Source: a virus. From it: a stretch of 64,000 nt of DNA. A program made the position numbers and the translations under genes. The DNA lies in IMG/VR virus record IMGVR_UViG_3300016665_000824, positions 32,001-96,000 of that record, one strand, 5' to 3'. Below are positions 4,473-56,261 of this stretch, piece after piece. Below the pieces are notes generated by a model. It was not told the origin of the DNA and ran no database searches. It saw only the letters and a program-made list of their open reading frames with translations. The stretch's first letter is position 1. Each line of letters opens with the position of its first letter.

Positions 4473-4715
4473 TTAGGAAGCCTTGAGACCCTCCAATACG
4501 ATCTGAGATTCTTCGAGCATCTGACGATCGCCTGTTCGCTGGCAGATATAAAAATAGCTGTCAGCATCATAATCATATAAACGCCGCTTGATCGTATAAG
4601 ACTTATTGGCGTACAAAATCCTTGTTCCTAGTTGGTATTTGGGAATTCCAATCGCGTAGCTTGCACTTTTTGCTGTCATATTGTGTTCGTGGGGATATCG
4701 CCACAAATCTACCAC
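4473..4715 (-). CDS. Small hypothetical protein (GTG start, or ATG at 4679)
   Basis: 80-aa ORF; start overlaps CCACAAA operator-like element. Confidence 0.3.
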   Translation of the reverse strand: MVDLWRYPHEHNMTAKSASYAIGIPKYQLGTRILYANKSYTIKRRLYDYDADSYFYICQRTGDRQMLEESQIVLEGLKAS

Positions 4716-4718
4716 AAA
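4699..4718 (+). promoter_or_regulatory. Operator-like direct repeat CGCCACAAATCTACCACAAA
   Basis: Two CCACAAA half-sites 11 bp apart, ~68 nt upstream of 4788 ATG; 19/20 identical to 27933-27952. Confidence 0.5.
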
Positions 4719-4787
4719 AATAGGTTAAAATAATTTATTCGCCGCAGCGTTGTAGCGCTCGGCGTGTGAATCACCAACCATAACTTA

Positions 4788-5321
4788 GTGACTACACATA
4801 TGATACGAGCAATTCGTGCAATCGTCGAGCTTGATGATTTTTCTTTCGATGCGTACCAAATGCCAGACGGTGAAAAGCGCATTGGGTTTTTGGGAGCTTC
4901 CAACGTTTTAGGCTATGCTGACAACTGGTTGGGCAGGTTACATAAAGGCGATTCTCGGCAGCTAAAGGCTATACAGGGTATGGGTTATAGCGGCTTACAA
5001 ACCGAGGTCGAAATCATTCAACGGGGTAGGGAGATTAGCGCCTACGGGACTCGTGCAAATACTATCTCTCTTCGGGATTTTATTAAACTTGTAACTTATG
5101 AGGCTATCAAGAAAACAAATACCCGCGCAATTACTATTCTTGCCTCAATGGCTGAGTTTGGTTTTGAGCAAGTCATTGACATGGCTTTTGCTGGCAACCC
5201 AATGGATGAAATCCTTTCAAAGATCGTTCACTTTAGTCTATGGACTCAAGAAGAATGGGAGCAAGCTTTGGCGGATAACAGGGAAGACTTAGCTAATTTG
5301 CGACTTGGGATGTGGCGATAA
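4788..5321 (+). CDS. Accessory (moron-like) protein, unknown function
   Basis: 177-aa ORF on opposite strand between structural genes; preceded by CCACAAA direct-repeat element; convergent with giant ORF. Confidence 0.55.
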   Translation: MTTHMIRAIRAIVELDDFSFDAYQMPDGEKRIGFLGASNVLGYADNWLGRLHKGDSRQLKAIQGMGYSGLQTEVEIIQRGREISAYGTRANTISLRDFIKLVTYEAIKKTNTRAITILASMAEFGFEQVIDMAFAGNPMDEILSKIVHFSLWTQEEWEQALADNREDLANLRLGMWR

Positions 5322-22875: not shown

Positions 22876-22968
22876 ATCGCTATTGTTTGATGCTCACAAG
22901 CAAACAGGCGATCGCTTGATGAATTAGCGATCGCCTGTTAGATCTCCTTGTACACATGGCACATGAGG

Positions 22969-25450: not shown

Positions 25451-26323
25451 CTAGAAGTTCGCGTAAACTTTGACAACCCTGTTGTTGTTGATGTCGATAA
25501 CAACATCGGAGCGGAAACTGGCGCGGGTCGAAGCGTCGATCGCGCTGTTCGCATTGGTCTTTTGGGCATAACCCTTAGAGCCAGCAGCAACAGAGATATA
25601 AACGGTGTCGGACTCGGCGATACTGGTTTCCAAAGTAGGAACCCAAATACCAGAGAGATCACCCAATCGTCGTTGAACATCAACCGCCAACTGGTTAGCT
25701 TCGTATCCAGCAGTCGCCGCTTCGCCAACCACGTCTTTTTGAACGGAGGTGTTTAGGCGGGTGATGCCGCAGATAGCGGAGATTGCGTCACCACTGTTAG
25801 GAAGGCGAATGCTGCCACCATTGAGAGTTCCAGTCACACGAGGAGTTGTGCCTGCGACCTTGGTGACAAACAATCCAAAGCCAATGCGAGATGGGGCTGC
25901 GGCTGCGGTAGTTGGAGTGGTAGGCACGGTTAAAGGTGCTGCACCGCCACCACTGACGCTCACAAACATCGGGGTATTATCCTTGCGATGAGTGAAGACC
26001 AAAGTTGAGGTGTTATTTACCACCGAGGCAATCTGGCTGGCGCGAAGGTTAGCGCGGAACGCTGCGTACAAGCCTGCGGCAAGGTCGGCGCGAACAGTTG
26101 AAGCGGTGGTAAAAGAGAAGGTGATTGGGTTATCGGAGGTATCAGCATCATAGATAGTGATGCTGTACACAGTGGCTGTAACGGGAGTTGCAGGAGTTGT
26201 AACCGTCCAAACTTCCTTAACGTAGCCACTGTCATTGTGATAGGCTTCAACAGAGCCAACACCCATGCCCTCAACCATTCCAGCGAGAGCCTGTGTGTAA
26301 TACTGGCGATAATTCTTTTGCAT
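25451..26323 (-). CDS. Ala/Thr-rich head structural protein (decoration or capsid-associated)
   Basis: 290-aa ORF between scaffold-like and capsid-like genes. Confidence 0.4.
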   Translation of the reverse strand: MQKNYRQYYTQALAGMVEGMGVGSVEAYHNDSGYVKEVWTVTTPATPVTATVYSITIYDADTSDNPITFSFTTASTVRADLAAGLYAAFRANLRASQIASVVNNTSTLVFTHRKDNTPMFVSVSGGGAAPLTVPTTPTTAAAAPSRIGFGLFVTKVAGTTPRVTGTLNGGSIRLPNSGDAISAICGITRLNTSVQKDVVGEAATAGYEANQLAVDVQRRLGDLSGIWVPTLETSIAESDTVYISVAAGSKGYAQKTNANSAIDASTRASFRSDVVIDINNNRVVKVYANF

Positions 26324-26336
26324 TGTTTAGTTGCTC

Positions 26337-27827
26337 CTATTTTCTAGTGGAACGAGCTAAGGGTTTGGAGTAGTTCTTGCCGTAGCGCTCGTTATTGCGT
26401 TCTGCGGCATCCTTCTTCTCCTCGGAATCTTTACGCTCAGTGCGACCAACCTTTACGGCGGTCTCTAGGCGATCTGCGTAGCTAGGCGCAGGAACAAGAG
26501 TTGCGTACTCAGCCGCGCTATCGAAACGGGCTTCGATGTAGCTATCGTTGCGATCGCTTAAATCAACTTCAGGATGAATAGCCTTCAGTGCAGCGCGACG
26601 AATCTCGGTGGAGTCCATCGTGGTTTCGATACCTGCATCCTCGATGTTGATACCCTTAGAGGTAAGAAGGTCGTGAGCCTTGCCAATTGCATCGAGGCGA
26701 TCGGCAGTCTGGCGATTGATTTCTTCAGCGAGGAATTCACGGACTTCATCGGAGTCAAGAACGACTGCCAACTCAGAAGAGTCCATCTTCTTGCCCTTCT
26801 TCATCTTTTTCTTGATGAAGTCAGGCATCTTGCTTTCACCCTCGGATTCCTCATCGTCAGGCTCGCCTTCGCCGTCTTCCTTGTCACCACAAGAAGCATC
26901 CTGACGGATAGTTTCGAGTTGAGTTAGGGTTTCGGTTAGCTCATCTTCAAGAGCGTCAGCACGACCCTTGGTGCGATTAACTTCGGAAGTAAGGTCGGCG
27001 ATCGCGTCAGCCTTCTCTTTGAGTTCAGCCTCAAGAGAATCCACGCGAGACTTATATTTAGATAGTTCTTCGAGTTTTTGCGACAGGGGGTAGAGCGCGA
27101 TGTCCTCCACCTGAAACTCGCCAGCGCCATCCACGCGCAATGTTTTTGTTTTCAAATCGGACATAGCGGAGCTACCCTCATTTTTAATTGTTGGAATAAC
27201 GACAACGCTGTTCGGAGCAGAGGCTTTAACTTGGATCGAGTCAAAGCGAACTAGCTCAACAACCTCATCCCCATCGGCATCGGCACTATCGAGGTGCATC
27301 CTCACAGTGCTCCCCCCGCGTGGGTTGTCAGTTGCGGCGCAATGGTCTGGTCGAATCTTGGTTTGAACACGGTCAAAATCGCCCCGATAGGTGATCTGGT
27401 CGATCGCGTCGAACCATTCGCCATTCGGGGCTTCTACGATTTCGCATTCATATCCAAGAGAAAGACCGTTCTTTTTGCCTGCCTTTACGGACTGGGCAAA
27501 ATCGGGGTTAGAGATTCGGGCAATATTCTGTACAACCCCCTCGTTATCGTTGTACTCACCCGCCCTTGTTAATTCACCAACAGCGCTATCTCGTTTTCCC
27601 CGCAATAGCGAAGATGGATGCTCGACAGTCATCGGCAATCCTTTTAGGGACTCAAGGAAATCGCGATCGCGGTTTGCCGAAGCAGGTCGCAATTCACGAA
27701 CTCGCTTTCCGTCACCTCGAAAGTATGTCAATATGCCGTCTCGACAAACCGTGCTGTACGCATACAGCCCGTCCGCACGTTCTTCAGTGCGGGTCGCGAA
27801 ACTTACGTCATCAAAACGAAATGCCAT
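26337..27827 (-). CDS. Putative head maturation protease/scaffolding protein
   Basis: 496 aa; globular N-terminal half, coiled-coil and strongly acidic C-terminal half typical of scaffold; precedes capsid genes. Confidence 0.45.
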   Translation of the reverse strand: MAFRFDDVSFATRTEERADGLYAYSTVCRDGILTYFRGDGKRVRELRPASANRDRDFLESLKGLPMTVEHPSSLLRGKRDSAVGELTRAGEYNDNEGVVQNIARISNPDFAQSVKAGKKNGLSLGYECEIVEAPNGEWFDAIDQITYRGDFDRVQTKIRPDHCAATDNPRGGSTVRMHLDSADADGDEVVELVRFDSIQVKASAPNSVVVIPTIKNEGSSAMSDLKTKTLRVDGAGEFQVEDIALYPLSQKLEELSKYKSRVDSLEAELKEKADAIADLTSEVNRTKGRADALEDELTETLTQLETIRQDASCGDKEDGEGEPDDEESEGESKMPDFIKKKMKKGKKMDSSELAVVLDSDEVREFLAEEINRQTADRLDAIGKAHDLLTSKGINIEDAGIETTMDSTEIRRAALKAIHPEVDLSDRNDSYIEARFDSAAEYATLVPAPSYADRLETAVKVGRTERKDSEEKKDAAERNNERYGKNYSKPLARSTRK

Positions 27828-27932
27828 TGGCTAATTCAACTTAGGTCAATGGCATTACTTTCTTGTTTTGTCAAGATGAATATTCGGTTTTATGGAAATT
27901 AGCGATCGCTTTTCTTTAAATACGCTCAATAC

Positions 27933-27952
27933 CGCCACAAATCCACCACAAA
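27933..27952 (+). promoter_or_regulatory. Operator-like direct repeat CGCCACAAATCCACCACAAA
   Basis: Same element ~38 nt upstream of 27991 ATG. Confidence 0.5.
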
Positions 27953-27990
27953 GCCACGTTTCAATGCGAAAATCCGAGTAGAGTTACCAG

Positions 27991-28554
27991 TTGAATATGG
28001 CAGTAAAAAGTAAAGTCAAGCTCGGCGCGTATATCGGGCGAAGGCTGGAGCAGGAACGTACCGATGCCGATTACGGTCAGCAAGAAGTCATTAATGAGAT
28101 CCACAGAATAACGTCATCCCCAGAAGTTATTGCTGCGCTAGAGATATCTGTCGCCGCAAACCTAACCAAGTTTCGAGAGTTTCGAGGCAAACGCCAGAAA
28201 GATTTAGCCGCAGATCTAAACAACTTGCGCGATACCTTGCATGGCGTAGGTATAGATACTGAAGTGTCTGGCGATGTGTCTTGGATGTCTAAGGTTGAGA
28301 ATAGCGATCGCATCATGCAGGCGGTCGAACTACGACTCTTTAGCCTTGCTTTGGGTGTTCCGATGGAGGCATTTTTCCCTAATGAGTTAAACGTACTAGC
28401 AGAAAGTAATGACCCGTTCGCCCCTTACCGATATCTGGGACGCAGTATCGAGGGTATTCAAAAGTATCGACATGTCAGCGATCGCAACAAAATTGCGATC
28501 GTTTATTGTTCAGAAGGGTTGTCTTTACCTGATGGTGTGGGGAAATATCTATGA
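27991..28554 (+). CDS. Hypothetical protein, first gene of accessory island
   Basis: 187-aa ORF; CCACAAA direct-repeat element ~40 nt upstream; ATGA overlap with next gene. Confidence 0.5.
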   Translation: MNMAVKSKVKLGAYIGRRLEQERTDADYGQQEVINEIHRITSSPEVIAALEISVAANLTKFREFRGKRQKDLAADLNNLRDTLHGVGIDTEVSGDVSWMSKVENSDRIMQAVELRLFSLALGVPMEAFFPNELNVLAESNDPFAPYRYLGRSIEGIQKYRHVSDRNKIAIVYCSEGLSLPDGVGKYL

Positions 28555-28784
28555 GTGTTTATTCAAGCCCCGAATTCACTGGTACAATCATTCGAGAAAG
28601 CCATGAGAGTGGCGTTTTGCTAGTCACGGTCGTAGAGTTACCAGGGCTAGTCTTAGTGCTCAACTCCCATAGCGAAGAAGAAATCGTATTGCCCCAAGCT
28701 ATTAGATCGTATCTAAGTCTTGAGGAGCAATTGAAGATTAAGCGATCGCGACCCAAAGTCACAGCAGTAAAAATATCCATCTAA
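28551..28784 (+). CDS. Small protein with HicB-like (UPF0150-type) features
   Basis: 77 aa; VTVVELPGLV resembles the PELPGC motif of HicB-type antitoxins (from memory). Confidence 0.35.
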   Translation: MSVYSSPEFTGTIIRESHESGVLLVTVVELPGLVLVLNSHSEEEIVLPQAIRSYLSLEEQLKIKRSRPKVTAVKISI

Positions 28785-28812: not shown

Positions 28813-30786
28813 ATGTCCTATGAAGCCCTGCCGTCGGGAAGCTTAGTCAAAGCTCCCATCGATCTGATCGAAACTCATCCACAGAACCCCGCCCCTACAT
28901 CACAGAGGTATAGCGAAATATTGGGGTATCCCGTCAGGGTTGAGGATGCTCAGGTCGAGTCCCTGATTGAACTACTAAGGGCGGAGGGCTACAACCCCAA
29001 TAAGCCTATGCTGCTCAGACCAGTTGGCGATCGCCTCCAAGCCGTTGAGGGCAACCACCGTTTTGTGGCAATGTGGATGCTCACCAAGGTACTCAGAGAG
29101 TTTGAACAGGACTATATTCCCGCGATCGTGGATGAAGATCTATCCGAAGAGGACGCTCTGATTAAGTTGAGTACTCTTAATACTCAGCGCAGGATGGAGG
29201 GTTGGCGGTTAGCTCGATTGGCTTACTACACTTGCGTTGAGAAAGGCATGTCTCAGCCTGAGTATGCGGCAAAGGTGGGATACGTCCTTGAGGGTGGAAA
29301 GCCAAATGGTCCACGGATTTCTAAGTTGATTCAAGCCTGTCGATTTGTTGACTATATTGCTGCCAACTCACCGATTGAAGAACTGCAAGACGTTGAGGCT
29401 TTAACCGAACCTAAGAACGGTTTGTTTAGGTCAGTTGATCGCGTCGTTGAGTTTATGTACCTCGACCAAGAGGACTGGTTATGGATTGCAGAGTTCTACC
29501 TCCGTCATCACATGCAGATCTCGGCAAAACAACGAGTCAACCTAGCCAAGGCGATCAAAGATACAAAGGATTTGCTCAACAGATCTACCTCGTATCCCGA
29601 TCGCTGGAGTCAATGGTTGCGCTGGGAGTATATACGCGGAGAGGTCGCTAGTCAGTGTGCGGCAAACGAGGAGTCCCAATTAGCCAAGAGTTTATTACCC
29701 CAACTAATTTCTGAGGCGAATAAAACCTACGAGTCGGACGACTTGCCATTCATTCACAACTATCACGAAGTTACTGGTAACAGGGTTGAAGAGAAAACTG
29801 CCAATCTCAAGGAGGAATTTCGTGCTGAGTTAATCAAGCAGATCGAAGGGCGTAGTGCCAAGTTTTACAGGCTTGTTGATGTTGCTGAAGCTGCGCGGAC
29901 TGTGATCGATCGCTATGCGTTTATCGATCAGAAGTACGAAAACTTCAAAAAGATCGAAAACACGGTACATATCGAGCAAGAGATTGTTGCGATCGCACCT
30001 CCGACGACCTCAAAGTCAAAATCTACGCCAACAACATCTACGCGATCGCCTGTTGCAGAAACAAAGCCCAAGCTTGATACCGAAAAGCGAGTGTGGATTG
30101 AGGAACAATATCAGCCAAAAGGCATGGTTTCTTCTCTAGAAGATTATGCTTTCCACGGCGGCAAACAGTACGGGCTGATATTCTCCCGTCTTGGCAATAG
30201 CGGCATGGAGGACTTCTTTCAAAATACCGACTATATCTATAGAACGCTTACCGAAGATGGAGTATTCGCACTGATATTGCCGCATAAATATTCCTTCGCG
30301 GTAATTGAGGAGCTTGAGTATAAGGTAGCTAACTCTAGTCGCTTACACCTTCGAGGGTTGGATGGCGGCATATATTCCGATGATGAAAAGCCGAGATTGG
30401 CGATCGCCGCATCAAACCGTACATTGATTCATCAAGAGTACGAAGAATTATTATTGTTCACCACTCAAGACGATACTCCTCTGCCATTGCGATCGCCTCT
30501 CCCTCGGATGGCGCTGGAGCCAGTTCACGATATTCTGACCGCTTTTGGCGACCTGAGCGAGCCGTTCTTAGATCCGTTCGCCTTCAGTGGTGAGGTCGTA
30601 GTCGCAGCAAAAAGTCTTGGGTATCGGTGCGACTATCTCGTACAGACTCCAAACCAGTTGGACTTGGTTACGCGCTGGTGCGATCGGACTGAGTTTCCTG
30701 AGAGTCTACTTAGATTTGCGGAAGAGTTTACTCATTTTGATGAGGCACTGTTTAGTGATCGAGCAACTACTCGTGCAAGATCCTGA
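28813..30786 (+). CDS. ParB-like nuclease domain protein with degenerate methyltransferase-like C-terminus
   Basis: 657 aa; N-terminal LLRPVGDRLQAVEGNHRFVAMW fits ParB/Srx fold; C-terminal LDPFAFSGEVVVAAKSLGYRCDYL aligns to MTase motif I (DPFxGSGTT) with glycines replaced; no DPPY motif. Confidence 0.55.
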   Translation: MSYEALPSGSLVKAPIDLIETHPQNPAPTSQRYSEILGYPVRVEDAQVESLIELLRAEGYNPNKPMLLRPVGDRLQAVEGNHRFVAMWMLTKVLREFEQDYIPAIVDEDLSEEDALIKLSTLNTQRRMEGWRLARLAYYTCVEKGMSQPEYAAKVGYVLEGGKPNGPRISKLIQACRFVDYIAANSPIEELQDVEALTEPKNGLFRSVDRVVEFMYLDQEDWLWIAEFYLRHHMQISAKQRVNLAKAIKDTKDLLNRSTSYPDRWSQWLRWEYIRGEVASQCAANEESQLAKSLLPQLISEANKTYESDDLPFIHNYHEVTGNRVEEKTANLKEEFRAELIKQIEGRSAKFYRLVDVAEAARTVIDRYAFIDQKYENFKKIENTVHIEQEIVAIAPPTTSKSKSTPTTSTRSPVAETKPKLDTEKRVWIEEQYQPKGMVSSLEDYAFHGGKQYGLIFSRLGNSGMEDFFQNTDYIYRTLTEDGVFALILPHKYSFAVIEELEYKVANSSRLHLRGLDGGIYSDDEKPRLAIAASNRTLIHQEYEELLLFTTQDDTPLPLRSPLPRMALEPVHDILTAFGDLSEPFLDPFAFSGEVVVAAKSLGYRCDYLVQTPNQLDLVTRWCDRTEFPESLLRFAEEFTHFDEALFSDRATTRARS

Positions 30787-30822
30787 TCGGTTAAGCGTGG
30801 GTAGCCACGACGCTTGTTCAAG

Positions 30823-30863
30823 GCAATAAAAAAGGAGTCCAATTGAGACTCCTTTTTTATTGC
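30823..30863. terminator. Bidirectional intrinsic terminator
   Basis: 17-bp perfect stem GCAATAAAAAAGGAGTC / GACTCCTTTTTTATTGC with 7-nt loop, A/T tracts on both sides, between convergent genes. Confidence 0.7.
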
Positions 30864-30869
30864 TGTAGT

Positions 30870-31595
30870 TTAATCAAAGAATTTTCTAACCGCCGCTTCT
30901 ACATCCTTGTTTGGCATCGGGTAGCACCAAATCGGCATCATCCGACCATTGCAAATCCTTTCTTCTTGTTTGCCAAGAGCCTCGCAAGTAGCTTTGACAA
31001 ATTTTCCTAATGTGGTGCGGTTTTTAGCTGTTACGGGCAAACTCAAAGATTCAGCAATTTCTACGGCTCCCATCCACTTTGTCTCCGAGGCTGGAGCGAT
31101 CGCCTTGATAACAGCCATTGCGTCGTTGATCGCAACATCTACAAGCATTTGACATAAGCGAGGGTCGGAATCAGCAAGCATATCCTTGATCTCAAAGACT
31201 GACTTCGCTGTTTCGAGTGCTATTACACGAGAGGGCAATGCGGGAACAGGAGTGGGGGTAGTAGGCACTGATTGTAACAATGCCTTCGCCTTAGAGAAGG
31301 CTTCAACCAGATCGAGCTTGCTCTGAACAACGGCTACCGTGTTTCGGCTCAGGGTCATTAAAGCGGTCGCTTGGTCTTCGTTGAGTAGCGCAAATTTAGG
31401 AGGGTTCCCTGTCGCCTTTTCGGGGACTCCGATTTTAAATCGGATACCCGCGAACCTTGCTTCAATCATGTCTTGGTACTTCTTGATGTTCCGCATAAAG
31501 CTCTCGTGATCAATCCCAAGTCGCTCGGCAATCAGTCGAGAGTCAACAAGCAATTCGCCATCTTCATTGATGATTGGTACAATACTTTCGGACAT
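30870..31595 (-). CDS. Rha-family phage regulatory protein
   Basis: 241 aa; N-terminal LLVDSRLIAERLGIDHESFMRNIKKY matches Rha domain pattern. Confidence 0.6.
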   Translation of the reverse strand: MSESIVPIINEDGELLVDSRLIAERLGIDHESFMRNIKKYQDMIEARFAGIRFKIGVPEKATGNPPKFALLNEDQATALMTLSRNTVAVVQSKLDLVEAFSKAKALLQSVPTTPTPVPALPSRVIALETAKSVFEIKDMLADSDPRLCQMLVDVAINDAMAVIKAIAPASETKWMGAVEIAESLSLPVTAKNRTTLGKFVKATCEALGKQEERICNGRMMPIWCYPMPNKDVEAAVRKFFD

Positions 31596-31678
31596 ATAAT
31601 CTACCTTTTCTAGGTTATGTGTTACGCGATCGCACCTTCAAAAACTTGCGATCGCTATCCTTAATATTATACCTTGAT

Positions 31679-31697
31679 CTTGTGGCGATTTTGTGGG
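31679..31697 (-). promoter_or_regulatory. Operator-like CCACAAA-N4-CCACAAG dyad, inverted orientation
   Basis: Reverse complement reads CCCACAAAATCGCCACAAG; between Rha gene start and 31727 ATG. Confidence 0.4.
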
Positions 31698-31726
31698 AGT
31701 ATTAATAAACGTCACAGGAATTTTTT

Positions 31727-32686
31727 ATGTCTGAATACTATTTATACGGCGATCGCGAAGGTAATGCTCTTGATCGGTTAAAAGCTTCTCGCCCTCAGCT
31801 AATCAATAAGCTTTACTACTGGGCTGGCAAACGGCTTGACTATCGGGTTAAGCATTCGCTTATGGCGGAGCAGGATGTTTCCAAGCAGGTTGATCGATAT
31901 CTAGAGGCGATTGCATTTGCTTCGTCGGAAAAGGATCTGCTAAACACGCTCAACAGTTGGAACCTCCTGTCACCTCAAGAGAAGGCGATTATGGCAAAGC
32001 TGTTCCCCTTCAAACCAAATCATCGGTTTGATCCTACAAATTTACAGTTTGAAGGATGGTTTACTGGGTGTAATTGGTACGAATTGAGAAAGGGCGAGTA
32101 CATCACCGCAGAAGAGGAAGTTCTTGACGGCATTGCCTATCAAGGACAGGAAGTAGCGATCATCACAAAGAATGCTTACGAGGCAGAAGTTTTGAACGCC
32201 AAGAATATGATGATTGTTGACGTGGATCTTGAGGGTGATCAGGCGATCGTGCAGAATGCTCAGTTCGCTCTTGACGTACTTCGATCTTTTATTAGCAACA
32301 CAAAAAATTGGGATCTAGGCTTTAGGGTTTACAAAACTGCGGCAGGTTTGAGATATATCTGCACGACCCATGAATTTGAAGCGACAGATCCTCTTAGCGA
32401 CAAGATTATGCGTAATTTACTCGCTGATGATCGCTACCGAGCTTTGTGTAAATTCCAAGATACCTATCGCGCTCGATTAACTCCAAAACCTTGGCGAGCT
32501 TCTGACATTGCGTGGCGTAATCGCGGAGTGTGGGATGTTTCAGGCGAATGGGTGGAATATTTCAGGGTGTGTGACTCGCTTAGCCTCTACGGAAATACTA
32601 ATATCCTTCCCCAGTTCGCCAAGGCGATCGAATACCATGATCGAATCACAAATGTCTTTGCCGATCCAAAACTAATCCTCGCGTAG
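31727..32686 (+). CDS. Hypothetical protein
   Basis: 319-aa ORF; inverted CCACAAA dyad ~30 nt upstream. Confidence 0.5.
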   Translation: MSEYYLYGDREGNALDRLKASRPQLINKLYYWAGKRLDYRVKHSLMAEQDVSKQVDRYLEAIAFASSEKDLLNTLNSWNLLSPQEKAIMAKLFPFKPNHRFDPTNLQFEGWFTGCNWYELRKGEYITAEEEVLDGIAYQGQEVAIITKNAYEAEVLNAKNMMIVDVDLEGDQAIVQNAQFALDVLRSFISNTKNWDLGFRVYKTAAGLRYICTTHEFEATDPLSDKIMRNLLADDRYRALCKFQDTYRARLTPKPWRASDIAWRNRGVWDVSGEWVEYFRVCDSLSLYGNTNILPQFAKAIEYHDRITNVFADPKLILA

Positions 32687-33109
32687 ATACTCTTCCAGAA
32701 TAATCCCGATCTCTACCTCATCCTCTTTGGATACACCCAAGAACTTACGCACGGGTAAACCCTCTAGTCCTAATTGATGCTTCCGCATATAGTCCACATT
32801 AGTACCCACAACCACGCGATCTTTAGTTGCCGCATAGTTAATCGAAGCTCGACCTCGACCTGACGCTTGGAGGATTTTATCGATATACCCCTTAGCCTTC
32901 TTTAGTCGCCTTGTATAGGGCGTATTAGCCTTCCAAGGGTTTCCGTCGGGGTCAACCTCTTTCTCGAATCTCTGGTCTGTACTCAATAGAAGTTGCTGTC
33001 CGATCTCATTCATTACTGGAGTGAGGTCGGATGTTTTTTTGATCAACTTTCGGAGTTGCTCTTGGATGGCTTTGTCATTATAAGTGAGCGAGATGATTGG
33101 ATCAGCCAT
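32672..33109 (-). CDS. Phage virion morphogenesis protein (Mu G-like)
   Basis: 145 aa; DPDGNPWKANTPYTRRLKKAKG...VVVGTNVDYMRKHQLG resembles Mu G-family pattern; adjacent to Mu F-like gene. Confidence 0.55.
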   Translation of the reverse strand: MADPIISLTYNDKAIQEQLRKLIKKTSDLTPVMNEIGQQLLLSTDQRFEKEVDPDGNPWKANTPYTRRLKKAKGYIDKILQASGRGRASINYAATKDRVVVGTNVDYMRKHQLGLEGLPVRKFLGVSKEDEVEIGIILEEYLRED

Positions 33110-33812
33110 TGACTTTCGCCTTGATTTGCTTCTTGACTTGAGTTCTCAGGTCTGGGGATAGTCGCTTCAGTCCCTGATTCAATATTTGCTGAGTTGTCTT
33201 CGCGTCTGTACCGCGACGAAAGTTGACACCCATGATCGTGTCGGGATCTGGTGGGTTTTCCAAGATTTCAATACCATTTCGCTCGCAGTAAGCGCGAGAC
33301 ACAGCGATCGCAGTACACTTGCAATTCCAATCACATGGAAATCCTATTCGCCTCCAGAAAGGAGAGGCTGCGGGAATCCCTTTATTGTGTAAAGCCTTAT
33401 GTGCTGGACGAGGCACTACCGAGTCGCGATGTCTCCATACCCATATATCGAGTTTCGCCATCACTTCAGGACTCCGCATCACCTTCTCCCTACCCTGCCA
33501 ATAAGACTTGTTGATATTCGTATCAAAAATCAACTTAATCTTCTGACCATTCGGCTGATATCCTGCGCGACCGATACGACGGTTAAAGCTACGAGTAAAT
33601 TGCTCGAAGGACGTGCCATCTTCAAGGGCTTTACCGATTAACCACTTAGTTGCTTCAAGTAAATCTGCTCGCATTAATCCAGATACCATAAAAGCGTGGT
33701 CGTGGATACGGGCATCTAAACCTTTGTAGTCGGATATAGGTAGAGCTAACCGATCGCGTAAGGCTGCGATCGCATCAACAGGTTTTAACTTCAAATACTC
33801 AGGGGTTGCCAC
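33102..33812 (-). CDS. Phage head morphogenesis protein, Mu F-like / SPP1 gp7 family
   Basis: 236 aa; WVWRHRDSVVPRPAHKALHNKG matches Mu F-like signature. Confidence 0.65.
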   Translation of the reverse strand: MATPEYLKLKPVDAIAALRDRLALPISDYKGLDARIHDHAFMVSGLMRADLLEATKWLIGKALEDGTSFEQFTRSFNRRIGRAGYQPNGQKIKLIFDTNINKSYWQGREKVMRSPEVMAKLDIWVWRHRDSVVPRPAHKALHNKGIPAASPFWRRIGFPCDWNCKCTAIAVSRAYCERNGIEILENPPDPDTIMGVNFRRGTDAKTTQQILNQGLKRLSPDLRTQVKKQIKAKVNG

Positions 33813-49595: not shown

Positions 49596-50051
49596 ATGTC
49601 TAACTCTAGTTCTGCCACAAAATTGGCGATCGCAAGATTAAAAGGATCTGACCTGCCTATTTTTGTTCCAGTTTCAGTCTCTGAGAAAGTCGCAACCCTA
49701 GTCAGGGAGTGTATTTTACAGTCCGACAGTTTAAAGATATTAAAAGTTACTACTACAGTTTACAACGAGCTTACTAAGCATTTAAAGCAGTACGAAAAGC
49801 CAAAATATACCATTCCTCAGTATCTTTTGATGCTCCTATATACGGTTTCTACTACTTCAGAATTGATCGAAAAACACAACAAGGGTTTAATTTCAGATGA
49901 CGAGTTTATTAACTGTATCAAAAACAACAAAAACGCAAACGGGACTAAAACCTCCCGCAAAATGGGTCGGAAGAAAGCAAGCGTTGATGCCAGCGATCGC
50001 GCAGTACTTCCCCGCGAGGTTCACAAAAGAACCAGTTCCAAGGTTTCTTGA
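49596..50051 (+). CDS. Hypothetical protein; 3' end overlaps methyltransferase start
   Basis: 151-aa ORF; ~155-nt overlap with next gene in another frame. Confidence 0.35.
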   Translation: MSNSSSATKLAIARLKGSDLPIFVPVSVSEKVATLVRECILQSDSLKILKVTTTVYNELTKHLKQYEKPKYTIPQYLLMLLYTVSTTSELIEKHNKGLISDDEFINCIKNNKNANGTKTSRKMGRKKASVDASDRAVLPREVHKRTSSKVS

Positions 50052-50814
50052 TTTCAAAAAGGGTGTCGGCAATTTCCACGACCCTTTCGTTGGTACTGGT
50101 AGTGCATTTTTGTATTTTGCGGATGGATTTCGAGGCGATCGCAAGATTTTTATTAGTGACAGTAATCCTGAACTCATTAATATTTGGCTGTGCATTCAAG
50201 CCGATCCTCTAAGGCTTTTAAGATCCTTGCTTGAATACAAGCGCCCTGTATTTAACAGCGCCGAATCGTACTATCACGAAAGGCAGATCTTCAATCAGCA
50301 GTTTAAAGGTTCTTACGACTACGAGCTAGCAGCAAGAATGATCTACTTAATTCAGGCTGGTTTCAATAGCCTATGGAGGGTTAACAGCGACGGTGAAATG
50401 AACACGCCTTTTGGCTCTCAGAAGCAAATTGCCCTTCTTACCGAGAATGATTTGACCGCGCTTTCGGTTCTCCTTCAAAAAGCGACAATCAAACATCAGC
50501 CTTTTGAAGAGTCGCTAAAAGATGTACAACCCAATGATGTCGTCTATCTCGACCCGCCATACATTGAAGTCAAAAAGAATTCCTTCAATAAATACACCAC
50601 AAAAGGTTTTAGCAGAGAGCAGCAGATACTCCTCCGCCAAGAAGCCGATCGCCTGCACGATCTAGGCGCTTATGTATACGCCAGTAATAGCGATACCCCC
50701 TTGAGTCGCGAAATTTGGTCGGGCTGGAAAATCGCAGAACTGACGAGATCGGGCTGCATGAACTCAGATGCAACCAAGCGTCAACGGGTTGGAGAGTTGT
50801 TATTTTATAAATAA
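49897..50814 (+). CDS. dam: DNA N6-adenine methyltransferase, Dam (D12) class
   Basis: KWVGRK N-terminal motif, FVGTGS motif I, VYLDPPY motif IV. Confidence 0.8.
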   Translation: MTSLLTVSKTTKTQTGLKPPAKWVGRKQALMPAIAQYFPARFTKEPVPRFLDFKKGVGNFHDPFVGTGSAFLYFADGFRGDRKIFISDSNPELINIWLCIQADPLRLLRSLLEYKRPVFNSAESYYHERQIFNQQFKGSYDYELAARMIYLIQAGFNSLWRVNSDGEMNTPFGSQKQIALLTENDLTALSVLLQKATIKHQPFEESLKDVQPNDVVYLDPPYIEVKKNSFNKYTTKGFSREQQILLRQEADRLHDLGAYVYASNSDTPLSREIWSGWKIAELTRSGCMNSDATKRQRVGELLFYK

Positions 50815-51418
50815 AAAAAGCCAGTCGCGGGACTGGCTACAGGTAAAACAACAAAAGACAACTAAGCGGAAATCAACATATACCGAGCATTTGTGGAGAA
50901 CAGCTCAGGCACTTATGGATATTAGCACAGAATTAAAACAAATCACTGTGAGATCGATGCGAGGAGGCAGCTTTTCGTTCGGTCCTCACGATATTCGAGT
51001 CGATCGCGGGTCGATCTTAGGCAATCCCTACGAGATGGCGAAAGATGAATCCAATCGCGATCGCGTATGCCTTGCCTACAAGCACTGGCTATTTGCAAAT
51101 ATTCGGTACTGGCTGGACATGAAAGAAAAAGGCATTGCAAAGGCTCTCTGGTGGCATATCGATCCAAAGAGCATAGCGATCGCCTCGGATTTAAGAATTG
51201 CTCCGTCGTGGAAGCAGTTCACTGTTGCTCAGGTGGAGAGTGAATTTACTCGCCTCTGCTATGAAGCAACCCAGCACGATATCAACCTCATTTGCTGGTG
51301 CTTTCCAAAAGCTTGCCATGCGGATGTACTGCGAGCAGCCTTGATCTGGTACTACGAGGAGCATTACTTAAAGGAGTGCTCACGGATTGAAACGACTATT
51401 AAAGAATTTTTTAGGTAA
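50768..51418 (+). CDS. DUF4326-like small protein (real start probably ~50908-50956)
   Basis: GSILGNPY and LICWCFPKACHADVL motifs recalled from DUF4326-type proteins; N-terminal part of track ORF spans a hairpin. Confidence 0.4.
   Translation: MQPSVNGLESCYFINKKSQSRDWLQVKQQKTTKRKSTYTEHLWRTAQALMDISTELKQITVRSMRGGSFSFGPHDIRVDRGSILGNPYEMAKDESNRDRVCLAYKHWLFANIRYWLDMKEKGIAKALWWHIDPKSIAIASDLRIAPSWKQFTVAQVESEFTRLCYEATQHDINLICWCFPKACHADVLRAALIWYYEEHYLKECSRIETTIKEFFR
50819..50838 (-). terminator. Terminator-like hairpin oriented for the minus strand
   Basis: AGCCAGTC-GCGG-GACTGGCT preceded by A7 on plus strand (U7 after hairpin on minus); directly after Dam stop. Confidence 0.35.
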
Positions 51419-55882: not shown

Positions 55883-56027
55883 TAGACCTCTCAGATAGGT
55901 TTGTTTGGTTAGAGGTGATTGCTTGTTGAGAGCAGGCGATCGCCTCGATAGAAATATTATTGCAGAAGTATTGCCAAAACGTCAACTATTGTTTTACACT
56001 TAGAGCATATTAATTCGGTGTAGCGAT

Positions 56028-56261
56028 ATGACTAGTTCTACTTTTGTTGTTGAAGTACCTGTAGAGGTCGGAGACCTACCCCAAAAAATATGGGAGGCTC
56101 GGAGACTTTGCCGACGCAATCATGTTGATTTGTGTAGGGATGCTGGCATAACCCGACAATATTGGACACAAATTGAGAAGGGGCAACGCAAATCAATCCC
56201 TTTACACACACTAAGAAAAATAGAAAAAGCTTTAGGCGTTGATTTTGGTATTCAGGCTTAG
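56028..56261 (+). CDS. XRE-family helix-turn-helix transcriptional regulator (Cro/CI-like)
   Basis: 77 aa; LCRDAGITRQYWTQIEKGQRKSIPLHTLRKIEKALGV HTH pattern; heads rightward operon. Confidence 0.75.
   Translation: MTSSTFVVEVPVEVGDLPQKIWEARRLCRRNHVDLCRDAGITRQYWTQIEKGQRKSIPLHTLRKIEKALGVDFGIQA

Follow-up and report, generated by a model that had tools for sequence, protein, structure and literature searches.

The locus described here lies in a 64,000-nucleotide stretch of viral DNA (positions 32,001 to 96,000 of IMG/VR record IMGVR_UViG_3300016665_000824; hereafter the window), which amounts in essence to a phage genome and bears a cyanobacterial signature. Within it, three consecutive plus-strand genes, which we call g1, g2 and g3 (Table 1), are read opposite to the minus-strand head genes around them. 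The surrounding structural block is long and runs from Mu-F-like and Mu-G-like genes over the prohead protease/scaffold and cement-like genes to downstream capsid and tail genes. An original prediction, made from the letters of the window, had described g1 and g2 as two plus-strand genes with an ATGA overlap that interrupt the minus-strand head genes, and this is what the sequence contains: in ctATGAgt, the stop codon of g1 (TGA, 28552-28554) shares letters with the start codon of g2 (ATG, 28551-28553). The same prediction had treated the two genes as a unit of their own and as the beginning of an accessory island. Both genes turned out to be real and conserved, but the unit extends to the third gene, g3. 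Nor is the trio accessory, since it is present in every relative found and only the genes past g3 vary.

Table 1. Coordinates of the trio, its upstream block and further features of the window
Feature	Position	Strand	Description or basis
g1	27997-28554	+	185 aa; open reading frame (ORF) from 27991/27997; putative divergent XRE-type helix-turn-helix protein
g2	28551-28784	+	77 aa; predicted small alpha/beta protein, ATGA overlap with g1
g3	28813-30786	+	657 aa; ParB/Spo0J-like N-terminus, methyltransferase-like C-terminus
Conserved candidate promoter/operator block	27922-27996	+	nine-locus alignment
First motif copy	27935-27965	+	ahead of g1
Second motif copy	4701-4731	+	CCACAAA-TCTA-CCACAAA-N7-TAAAAT; ahead of ORF 4800-5321, tail region
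Third motif copy	31666-31696	-	CCACAAA-ATCG-CCACAAG-N7-TATAAT; ahead of the Rha-like gene
Rha-like regulator	30870-31595	-	Pfam Phage_pRha 3.1e-11
Prohead protease/scaffold	26337-27827	-	DUF2213, phrog_530; flanks the trio
Phage_tail_S/Mu-G-like gene	32672-33109	-	other flank of the trio
Mu-F-like gene	33102-33812	-	next to the Mu-G-like gene
Cement-like protein	25451-26323	-	structural block
D12-class (Dam-like) methyltransferase, intact	49897-50814	+	Pfam 6.9e-43

Conservation of the trio

The ratio of nonsynonymous to synonymous divergence (dN/dS) is 0.05-0.07 for g1 and 0.10-0.13 for g2, at a dS of ~0.9-1.5, that is, at near-saturated synonymous divergence. Because these ratios indicate purifying selection, g1 and g2 are genuine coding genes. 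In most homologs of g1, the first residue corresponds to the ATG at 27997; three carry N-terminal extensions. We consider this ATG the likelier start compared with the TTG at 27991.

All relatives found (L001-L014 and L016-L020) carry the genes in the one order g1-g2-g3 and in a constant slot, with the protease on one side and the Mu-G-like gene on the other. On these related contigs g1 has 184-187 aa, g2 72-77 aa and the g3 homolog 598-634 aa, and the homologs of g1 and g2 are 75-97% identical to the window proteins. The overlap of g1 and g2 measures 4 nt in every locus fetched, and g3 starts 17-31 nt after g2 in close relatives. A whole divergent trio was found on a short metagenomic contig (L021), where all of them are about equally divergent (32% identity for g1', 35% for g2' and 35% for g3'). 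There, the ATGA overlap is intact and g3' begins 3 nt past g2'. A second short divergent contig (L015) retains g2'-g3'. The linkage between the small protein and the ParB-like protein thus outlasts a large divergence, which makes it the strongest functional clue available.

A search of IMG/VR yielded four close relatives. Two scans of 185,579 species-representative genomes (GTDB) did not turn up the trio, and it gave 0 DNA or protein matches in 50,697 phage records; with the divergent g3' as query, no match was obtained against viral contigs. The best matches of the prohead protease in the phage records reach only ~29% identity, and there is no close cultured phage. The only known carriers of the trio are one group of uncultured phages, and within this cyanophage lineage it is a core, fixed part. 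Variation is found in the slot 3' of g3 (30787-32686 in the window, 12213-13243 in L001, 4529-5669 in L002 and 11925-13034 in L012). The window holds the Rha-like gene there together with a 319-aa ORF that has a weak PADLOC match (PDC-M72B, E 0.0035); relatives have genes for Bro-N, for Bro-N with BstA_C or for KilA-N together with a LAGLIDADG homing endonuclease, or no gene there.

The upstream block and its CCACAAA repeat

A CCACAAA element ahead of the gene pair had been pointed out before, and it is present in two copies. They lie at 27935-27941 and 27946-27952, 11 nt apart and 45 nt upstream of the g1 ATG, within a conserved 75-nt block. This block contains AATAC, the direct repeat CCACAAA-N4-CCACAAA (27935-27952) and, 7 nt past the repeat, a -10-like TTCAAT (27960-27965), together with the invariant stretches CGTTT..TGCGA.AATC and TAGAGTTACCAG. 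Across nine loci the block is 75-93% identical, while the synonymous sites of g1 are saturated, and it is kept in L003, L005 and L017, where the sequence further upstream is unrelated, and also when another gene is the neighbour on that side.

The CCACAAA heptamer occurs 18 times in the window versus 8.6 expected copies, a number reached in 0 of 100 shuffles, and three copies of the double repeat, with 0-1 mismatch, are present. Extended to AATAC-N2-CCACAAA-N4-CCACAA(A/G)-N7-T(A/T)NAAT, the motif has exactly three instances in the 64 kb. They head the trio, the Rha-like gene and ORF 4800-5321, for which Pfam gave no match, and all three units run counter to the structural genes around them. 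The constant spacing of 7 nt to the -10-like hexamer, combined with the lack of a -35 consensus, suggests a factor-dependent class of promoters, and the block ahead of g1 would then function as one of them. The layout of a 7-nt repeat with a 4-nt spacer is like that of response-regulator boxes.

The proteins encoded by the trio

Several independent signals, all weak and below threshold, point to g1 as a divergent XRE-type helix-turn-helix (HTH) protein. The window protein matches Pfam HTH_31 at E 0.052 (14.3 bits versus a cutoff of 27), while its ortholog on L021 matches HTH_3 at E 0.018 (15.5 bits versus 23) and the PHROGs family phrog_3, 'repressor', at E 0.041; another homolog (P0013) bears the JGI name of an XRE-family regulator. 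With the g1 profile as query against the PDB, the best named solved match was the controller protein C.BclI (2b5a, E 0.0026). This match consists of two collinear stretches, g1 residues 5-33 and 93-128, with a helical insert (~residues 34-92) between the two XRE halves. In the same type of search, residues 43-103 (28123-28305) matched ribosomal uL29 in many entries (E 0.001-0.05), and this segment is probably a helical hairpin. The C-terminal ~50 aa are strongly conserved between the two lineages (DPFAPY..GI..YRH..IA(I/V)VYC.EG..YL) and match nothing. By eye, YRHVSDRNKIAIVYCSEGLSLPDGV in this region resembles the HicA core HHFKHPKKPGLVTVPHPKKDLPIGTV, but a HicA hidden in the g1 C-terminus was rejected: aligning the g1 family with four solved HicA sequences (hhalign) gave P 0.22 in an unrelated segment, and a HicA hidden Markov model (HMM) found nothing.

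For g2, a resemblance to HicB-type antitoxins had been predicted. At the family level this was not borne out, as the profile search for HicB/UPF0150 that the original prediction proposed was negative for the window protein, which has no match in Pfam (even at E 10), NCBIfam, PADLOC, PHROGs or the PDB sequences. Besides the family's own members, a filter-free, exhaustive hmmsearch with the g2 family against 1.84 billion representatives returned only one divergent ortholog (P0026) and a spurious repetitive protein with an MBG domain, and it gave no connection to HicB families. With a low-confidence model of g2 as query, three fold searches showed no HicB fold among their matches.

At the motif level, the resemblance held. 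In g2, ELPG is followed after 18 residues by QAI, and solved HicBs show D(I/L)PG and EAI at identical spacing. An hhalign comparison of the g2 family with four solved HicB N-domains placed 22 columns in register (probability 10%, P 0.003), a score that none of 150 column-shuffled templates attained. The predicted secondary structure, strand-strand-strand-helix-strand, would correspond to the topology of the HicB partial RNase H domain (10.1101/2023.12.08.570793). The divergent g2 ortholog has as its only or top matches a UPF0150-like family (Pfam E 0.05, 14 bits versus 27.3) and the 'HicB-like' phrog_497 (E 0.048), and an HMM of small HicBs ranked g2 orthologs 1st, 4th, 5th, 6th, 8th and 11th of 2660 segments (E 0.46-17). 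We regard a HicB-type fold of g2 as plausible but unproven.

The expectation that no HicA-like partner exists was confirmed: an HMM of four solved HicA sequences detected no HicA near the trio among 2660 six-frame segments from the window and five related loci. Since this defining partner is missing, the trio is not a member of the HicAB systems. The sole marginal match (56004-56258, E 0.027) fell on a 77-aa stand-alone XRE-type HTH protein in the replication/early region (56028-56261, plus strand), which is not a HicA and could be a Cro/CI-like regulator.

If g2 nevertheless has the HicB fold, it might act as an orphan HicB-type antitoxin against a host HicA, as an anti-defence protein by mimicry, and g1 and g3 would be functionally unrelated neighbours. 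The protein agrees in size and predicted strand order with small HicBs, which have 63-103 aa and no DNA-binding domain; these small classes are the most prevalent ones and occur in a cyanobacterial phage (10.1101/2023.12.08.570793). Further points in favour are the sub-threshold HicB/UPF0150 signals, the cyanobacterial host signature (139 copies of the HIP1 octamer GCGATCGC in the window versus 1.3 expected) and the relatives that carry other anti-defence genes, Tad2-like or Acb2/Tad1, in the structural module. However, neither the libraries, nor the 1.84 billion proteins, nor the fold searches linked the window protein to HicB. In addition, g2 is tightly coupled to g1, through the 4-nt overlap, and to g3, and this coupling is kept at 32-35% identity, which argues that g2 works with its neighbours. 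We consider an orphan antitoxin quite unlikely.

The third protein, g3, has near its N-terminus a ParB/Spo0J-like part with the start of an HTH (~residues 40-160), which is followed by a long helical middle of ~250 aa without any match, a low-complexity linker and a C-terminal domain. The window protein has no Pfam match at all; its residues 46-157 match Spo0J (1vz0 in the PDB) at E 0.002 as a single sequence and at 4.9e-5 as a profile. The ortholog on L015 matches ParB_N (E 0.008), phrog_8071, a 'ParB-like partition protein' (2.1e-4), and four further ParB-like PHROGs. Judged by this homology, the N-terminus of g3 belongs to the ParB/Srx superfamily. For Box II, where canonical ParB has GERRxRA, the window lineage shows EGNHRFVA and the divergent one RGNHTFVA. 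No ParA-type gene was found among the called neighbours in any locus, the whole window not having been scanned for ParA. By its Box II and by the lack of a called neighbouring ParA, g3 does not qualify as a canonical ParB CTPase partition protein.

The C-terminus of g3 aligned with CcrM, RsrI and 9c3u (hhalign; probability 48%, P 1.9e-4, 32 columns, none of 100 shuffles as high), and the resemblance is confined to the motif-X/I part of beta-class N6/N4 DNA methyltransferases. Pfam N6_N4_Mtase was matched by two homologs (E 0.056 in P0024 and 0.081 in P0022) and not by the window protein; the top PDB match of the C-terminus was M.MboIIA, at E 1.1. A regular-expression scan of seven full-length g3 orthologs found neither (D/N/S)PP(Y/F/W) nor FxGxG, and the only xPPx occurrences (APPT, APPP, SPPK, VPPS and APPE) lie within the variable low-complexity linker. 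A DPPY position at 'SRLG' of g3 was considered and not confirmed, as a low-confidence extended hhalign alignment puts the column elsewhere. The methyltransferase-like module is probably degenerate and non-catalytic. The window protein ends in a 23-residue extension (…SLLRFAEEFTHFDEALFSDRATTRARS, 30715-30786), whereas all six full-length orthologs lack it and end in …SLFK, SLFQ or SLFN, most of them followed by one more amino acid. The 3' end of g3, beside the variable slot, may thus have changed recently.

These similarities raise the question whether the trio is a controller-regulated DNA modification unit, in which a C-protein-like g1 times g3 and g3 is an active ParB-guided methyltransferase that shields the phage DNA from restriction. 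The C.BclI match of g1, the alignment of the g3 C-terminus with CcrM- and RsrI-type enzymes, the N6_N4_Mtase signals and the M.MboIIA match would all fit, and phages frequently encode ParB-fold proteins fused with an N6_N4 methyltransferase domain (PMC12704722). Yet the catalytic and cofactor motifs are found in 0 of 7 g3 orthologs, and the alignment is confident over 32 columns only. The phage, moreover, already has an intact D12-class methyltransferase, and XRE HTH domains are ubiquitous, so that C.BclI as top match is not specific. Taken together, this makes an active modification unit very unlikely.

A second question is whether g3 might be packaged into the virion and co-injected as an effector, in the manner of P1 DdrB, Dar-type and 'polyvalent' proteins, with g1 and g2 controlling or chaperoning its loading into the head. 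The trio does have its place in the head module, with the prohead protease on one side and the Mu-F/Mu-G-like genes on the other. DdrB-like ParB domains are typically found among late genes beside virion proteins, as parts of injected polyvalent proteins in which MuF, ParB and N6A methylase are hub domains (PMC5512222). But the trio is on the opposite strand, outside the late head transcript, and has its own candidate promoter block in common with the Rha-type regulator. No peptidase or other polyvalent-protein domain was detected. We consider a packaged effector highly improbable.

The original prediction had proposed a non-canonical toxin-antitoxin or anti-defence pair. As stated, this falls short, because it misses the conserved g3, and g2 travels with the ParB-like protein even at 35% identity. 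Extended to three genes, the idea would be a toxin-antitoxin-like or self-inhibited nuclease module, in which a harmful NTPase or nicking DNase activity of g3 is restrained by g2 as a HicB-fold inhibitor and g1 regulates transcription, after the pattern of three-component toxin-antitoxin systems; such a module would serve host shut-off, the exclusion of rival elements or an abortive-infection-type conflict. It would agree with the retained g2-g3 pairing, with the weak HicB-like signals of g2 and with the layout of an HTH gene in front, a small protein and a large protein downstream, which is similar to regulator-antitoxin-toxin layouts. Nonspecific nuclease/NTPase activity has been reported for ParB-fold domains fused to methylases and for those in Osa and GmrS (PMC5512222). 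On the other hand, no known toxin or defence family was matched, and PADLOC returned nothing for the trio. The Box II arginine, which lines the active-site pocket of ParB/Srx (PMC5512222), is not conserved in the divergent lineage, and the HicB fold of g2 is not established. Finally, the trio occurs in one phage lineage only, unlike mobile modules, and is missing from the species-representative genomes, where prophage or plasmid modules would be expected. On balance, a harmful module of this kind appears unlikely.

Other features of the phage lie at a distance from the trio. Elsewhere, the window encodes a portal protein, a DnaG-type primase, a DnaB-type helicase and the D12-class methyltransferase; directly 3' of the gene for the latter, a DUF4326-domain protein (Pfam 1.6e-13) is encoded at 50768-51418 on the plus strand. 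Some relatives carry Tad2-like or Acb2/Tad1-hairpin anti-defence sponge genes (L007-L011, 3887-4198; L012 and L013, 2647-2967). Their slot lies in the structural module, between an E217_gp27-like gene and a gene for a 128-aa protein; its equivalent in the window (22876-22968) measures only 94 nt and is empty.

A model of the trio and its relation to known systems

We tentatively propose, at somewhat less than an even chance, that g1-g2-g3 is a separately promoted operon of a regulator, an adaptor and a ParB-fold effector, fixed in its phage lineage. In its promoter block, the CCACAAA-N4-CCACAAA direct repeat would replace the usual -35 region. Through the shared CCACAAA signal, the trio, the Rha-like gene and ORF 4800-5321 would be expressed together, in a programme apart from that of the structural genes. 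As a putative XRE/controller-type HTH protein, g1 would most likely bind the upstream block and set the level of the operon. The ATGA overlap would yield g2 in a fixed ratio with g1, and g2 may be a small protein-binding adaptor, possibly similar to the HicB N-domain, that works with g1 and/or g3. The effector would be g3, a ParB-fold protein acting on DNA, whose methyltransferase-like C-terminus, with neither catalytic nor cofactor motifs, probably binds DNA or proteins instead of acting as an enzyme. The likely role of the operon is DNA-directed takeover or regulation, or protection of the phage DNA, and not that of a toxin-antitoxin addiction module.

Several points weigh against this model. 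A sigma-70 consensus scan of the spacer 27828-27996 revealed no promoter, which leaves conservation and the recurring motif as the grounds for the putative promoter. XRE proteins normally bind inverted repeats, while the conserved repeat is a direct one and no clear palindromic operator was seen in the upstream block; hence g1 may not be the reader of CCACAAA. As the Box II arginine is not conserved in the divergent lineage, NTP switching by g3 is doubtful. None of the domain assignments of g1 and g2 reaches a curated family threshold. The AlphaFold model of g1 is unusable (pLDDT 38), and the AlphaFold2 model of g2 is of low confidence (pLDDT 59.7), so that no fold is established.

A bolder version of the model would see in the trio an undescribed tripartite system of cyanophages for host takeover or anti-defence. 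Here, a HicB-fold protein recruited away from HicA would control a ParB/Srx effector whose methyltransferase domain is dead. The system would be governed by an XRE-type controller and expressed, together with the Rha-type regulator, from a phage-specific promoter class CCACAAA-N4-CCACAAA-N7-TNNAAT. In this full form we think it unlikely to be right. If none of the readings holds, what is left is a regulatory operon, so far uncharacterised, in a single group of uncultured cyanophages.

ParB-fold proteins outside chromosome segregation form a large and varied phage and plasmid class that is only now being recognised, and most of them have no known partner or role. In the trio, such a protein is joined with a putative HTH regulator, a putative tiny adaptor and a candidate shared promoter signal in one compact unit under strict conservation. 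A HicB fold in g2, if true, would be a case of this fold working outside HicA-HicB pairs. Resemblance alone is no ground for giving a toxin-antitoxin label to an antitoxin-like small protein inside a phage structural module.

Compared with known systems, g1 is closest to XRE-family HTH regulators, in particular to the restriction-modification controller (C) proteins of the C.BclI type. Its two matching stretches cover helices 1-2 and helices 3-5, and, like a C protein gene, g1 follows a conserved block, opens a putative operon and lies upstream of a methyltransferase-like gene. In contrast to the ~80 aa of C proteins, g1 has 185 aa, with a ~55-residue insert between the matching halves and an extra conserved C-terminal domain; it also scores below the Pfam thresholds, and no C-box-type palindrome was seen. 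In turn, g2 can be set beside the small HicBs without DNA-binding domain, that is, HicAB classes 1 and 2 with the partial RNase H fold of the UPF0150/TTHA1013 type. With 77 aa it falls within their range of 63-103 aa, and it shares with them the predicted strand order, the ELPG-18-AI spacing, the overlap with the upstream gene and a weak in-register profile similarity, to which the sub-threshold UPF0150 and phrog_497 matches of its ortholog add. Unlike HicB, g2 is below every family threshold, was not matched to a HicB in three fold searches and is confined to one phage lineage, and its partners are HTH and ParB-like proteins, with no HicA in the window or related loci.

For g3, two groups of ParB-fold proteins offer themselves. 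With the phage ParB-N6_N4 fusions (PMC12704722) and the ParB-methylases of the Bce_0392 type (cited in PMC5512222) it has in common the domain order and the phage origin, and no ParA was called among its neighbours. It differs from them in Box II, GNH(R/T)FVA instead of GERRxRA, in having neither DPPY nor FxGxG, in its unmatched ~250-aa middle and in the lack of a Pfam match. The second group comprises ParB-like proteins that act as activators or regulators with partners, such as the 5mYOX activator (PMC13229309), and in particular the regulators of mobile elements that do not serve segregation, namely HerB/YfjB of F-like plasmids, BisD of ICEclc and KorB of RK2 (PMC13370423, PMC12704722). Compared with HerB, BisD and KorB, the similarity of g3 is demonstrated for the ParB core only, its CTP-binding residues are not conserved and its gene stands in a phage head module. 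Like them, g3 is large (~650 aa) and combines a ParB N-domain with an HTH and a novel C-terminus; it is encoded on a mobile element and has no link to ParA, and the role proposed is likewise one in reprogramming or regulation, in some cases together with a small partner protein.

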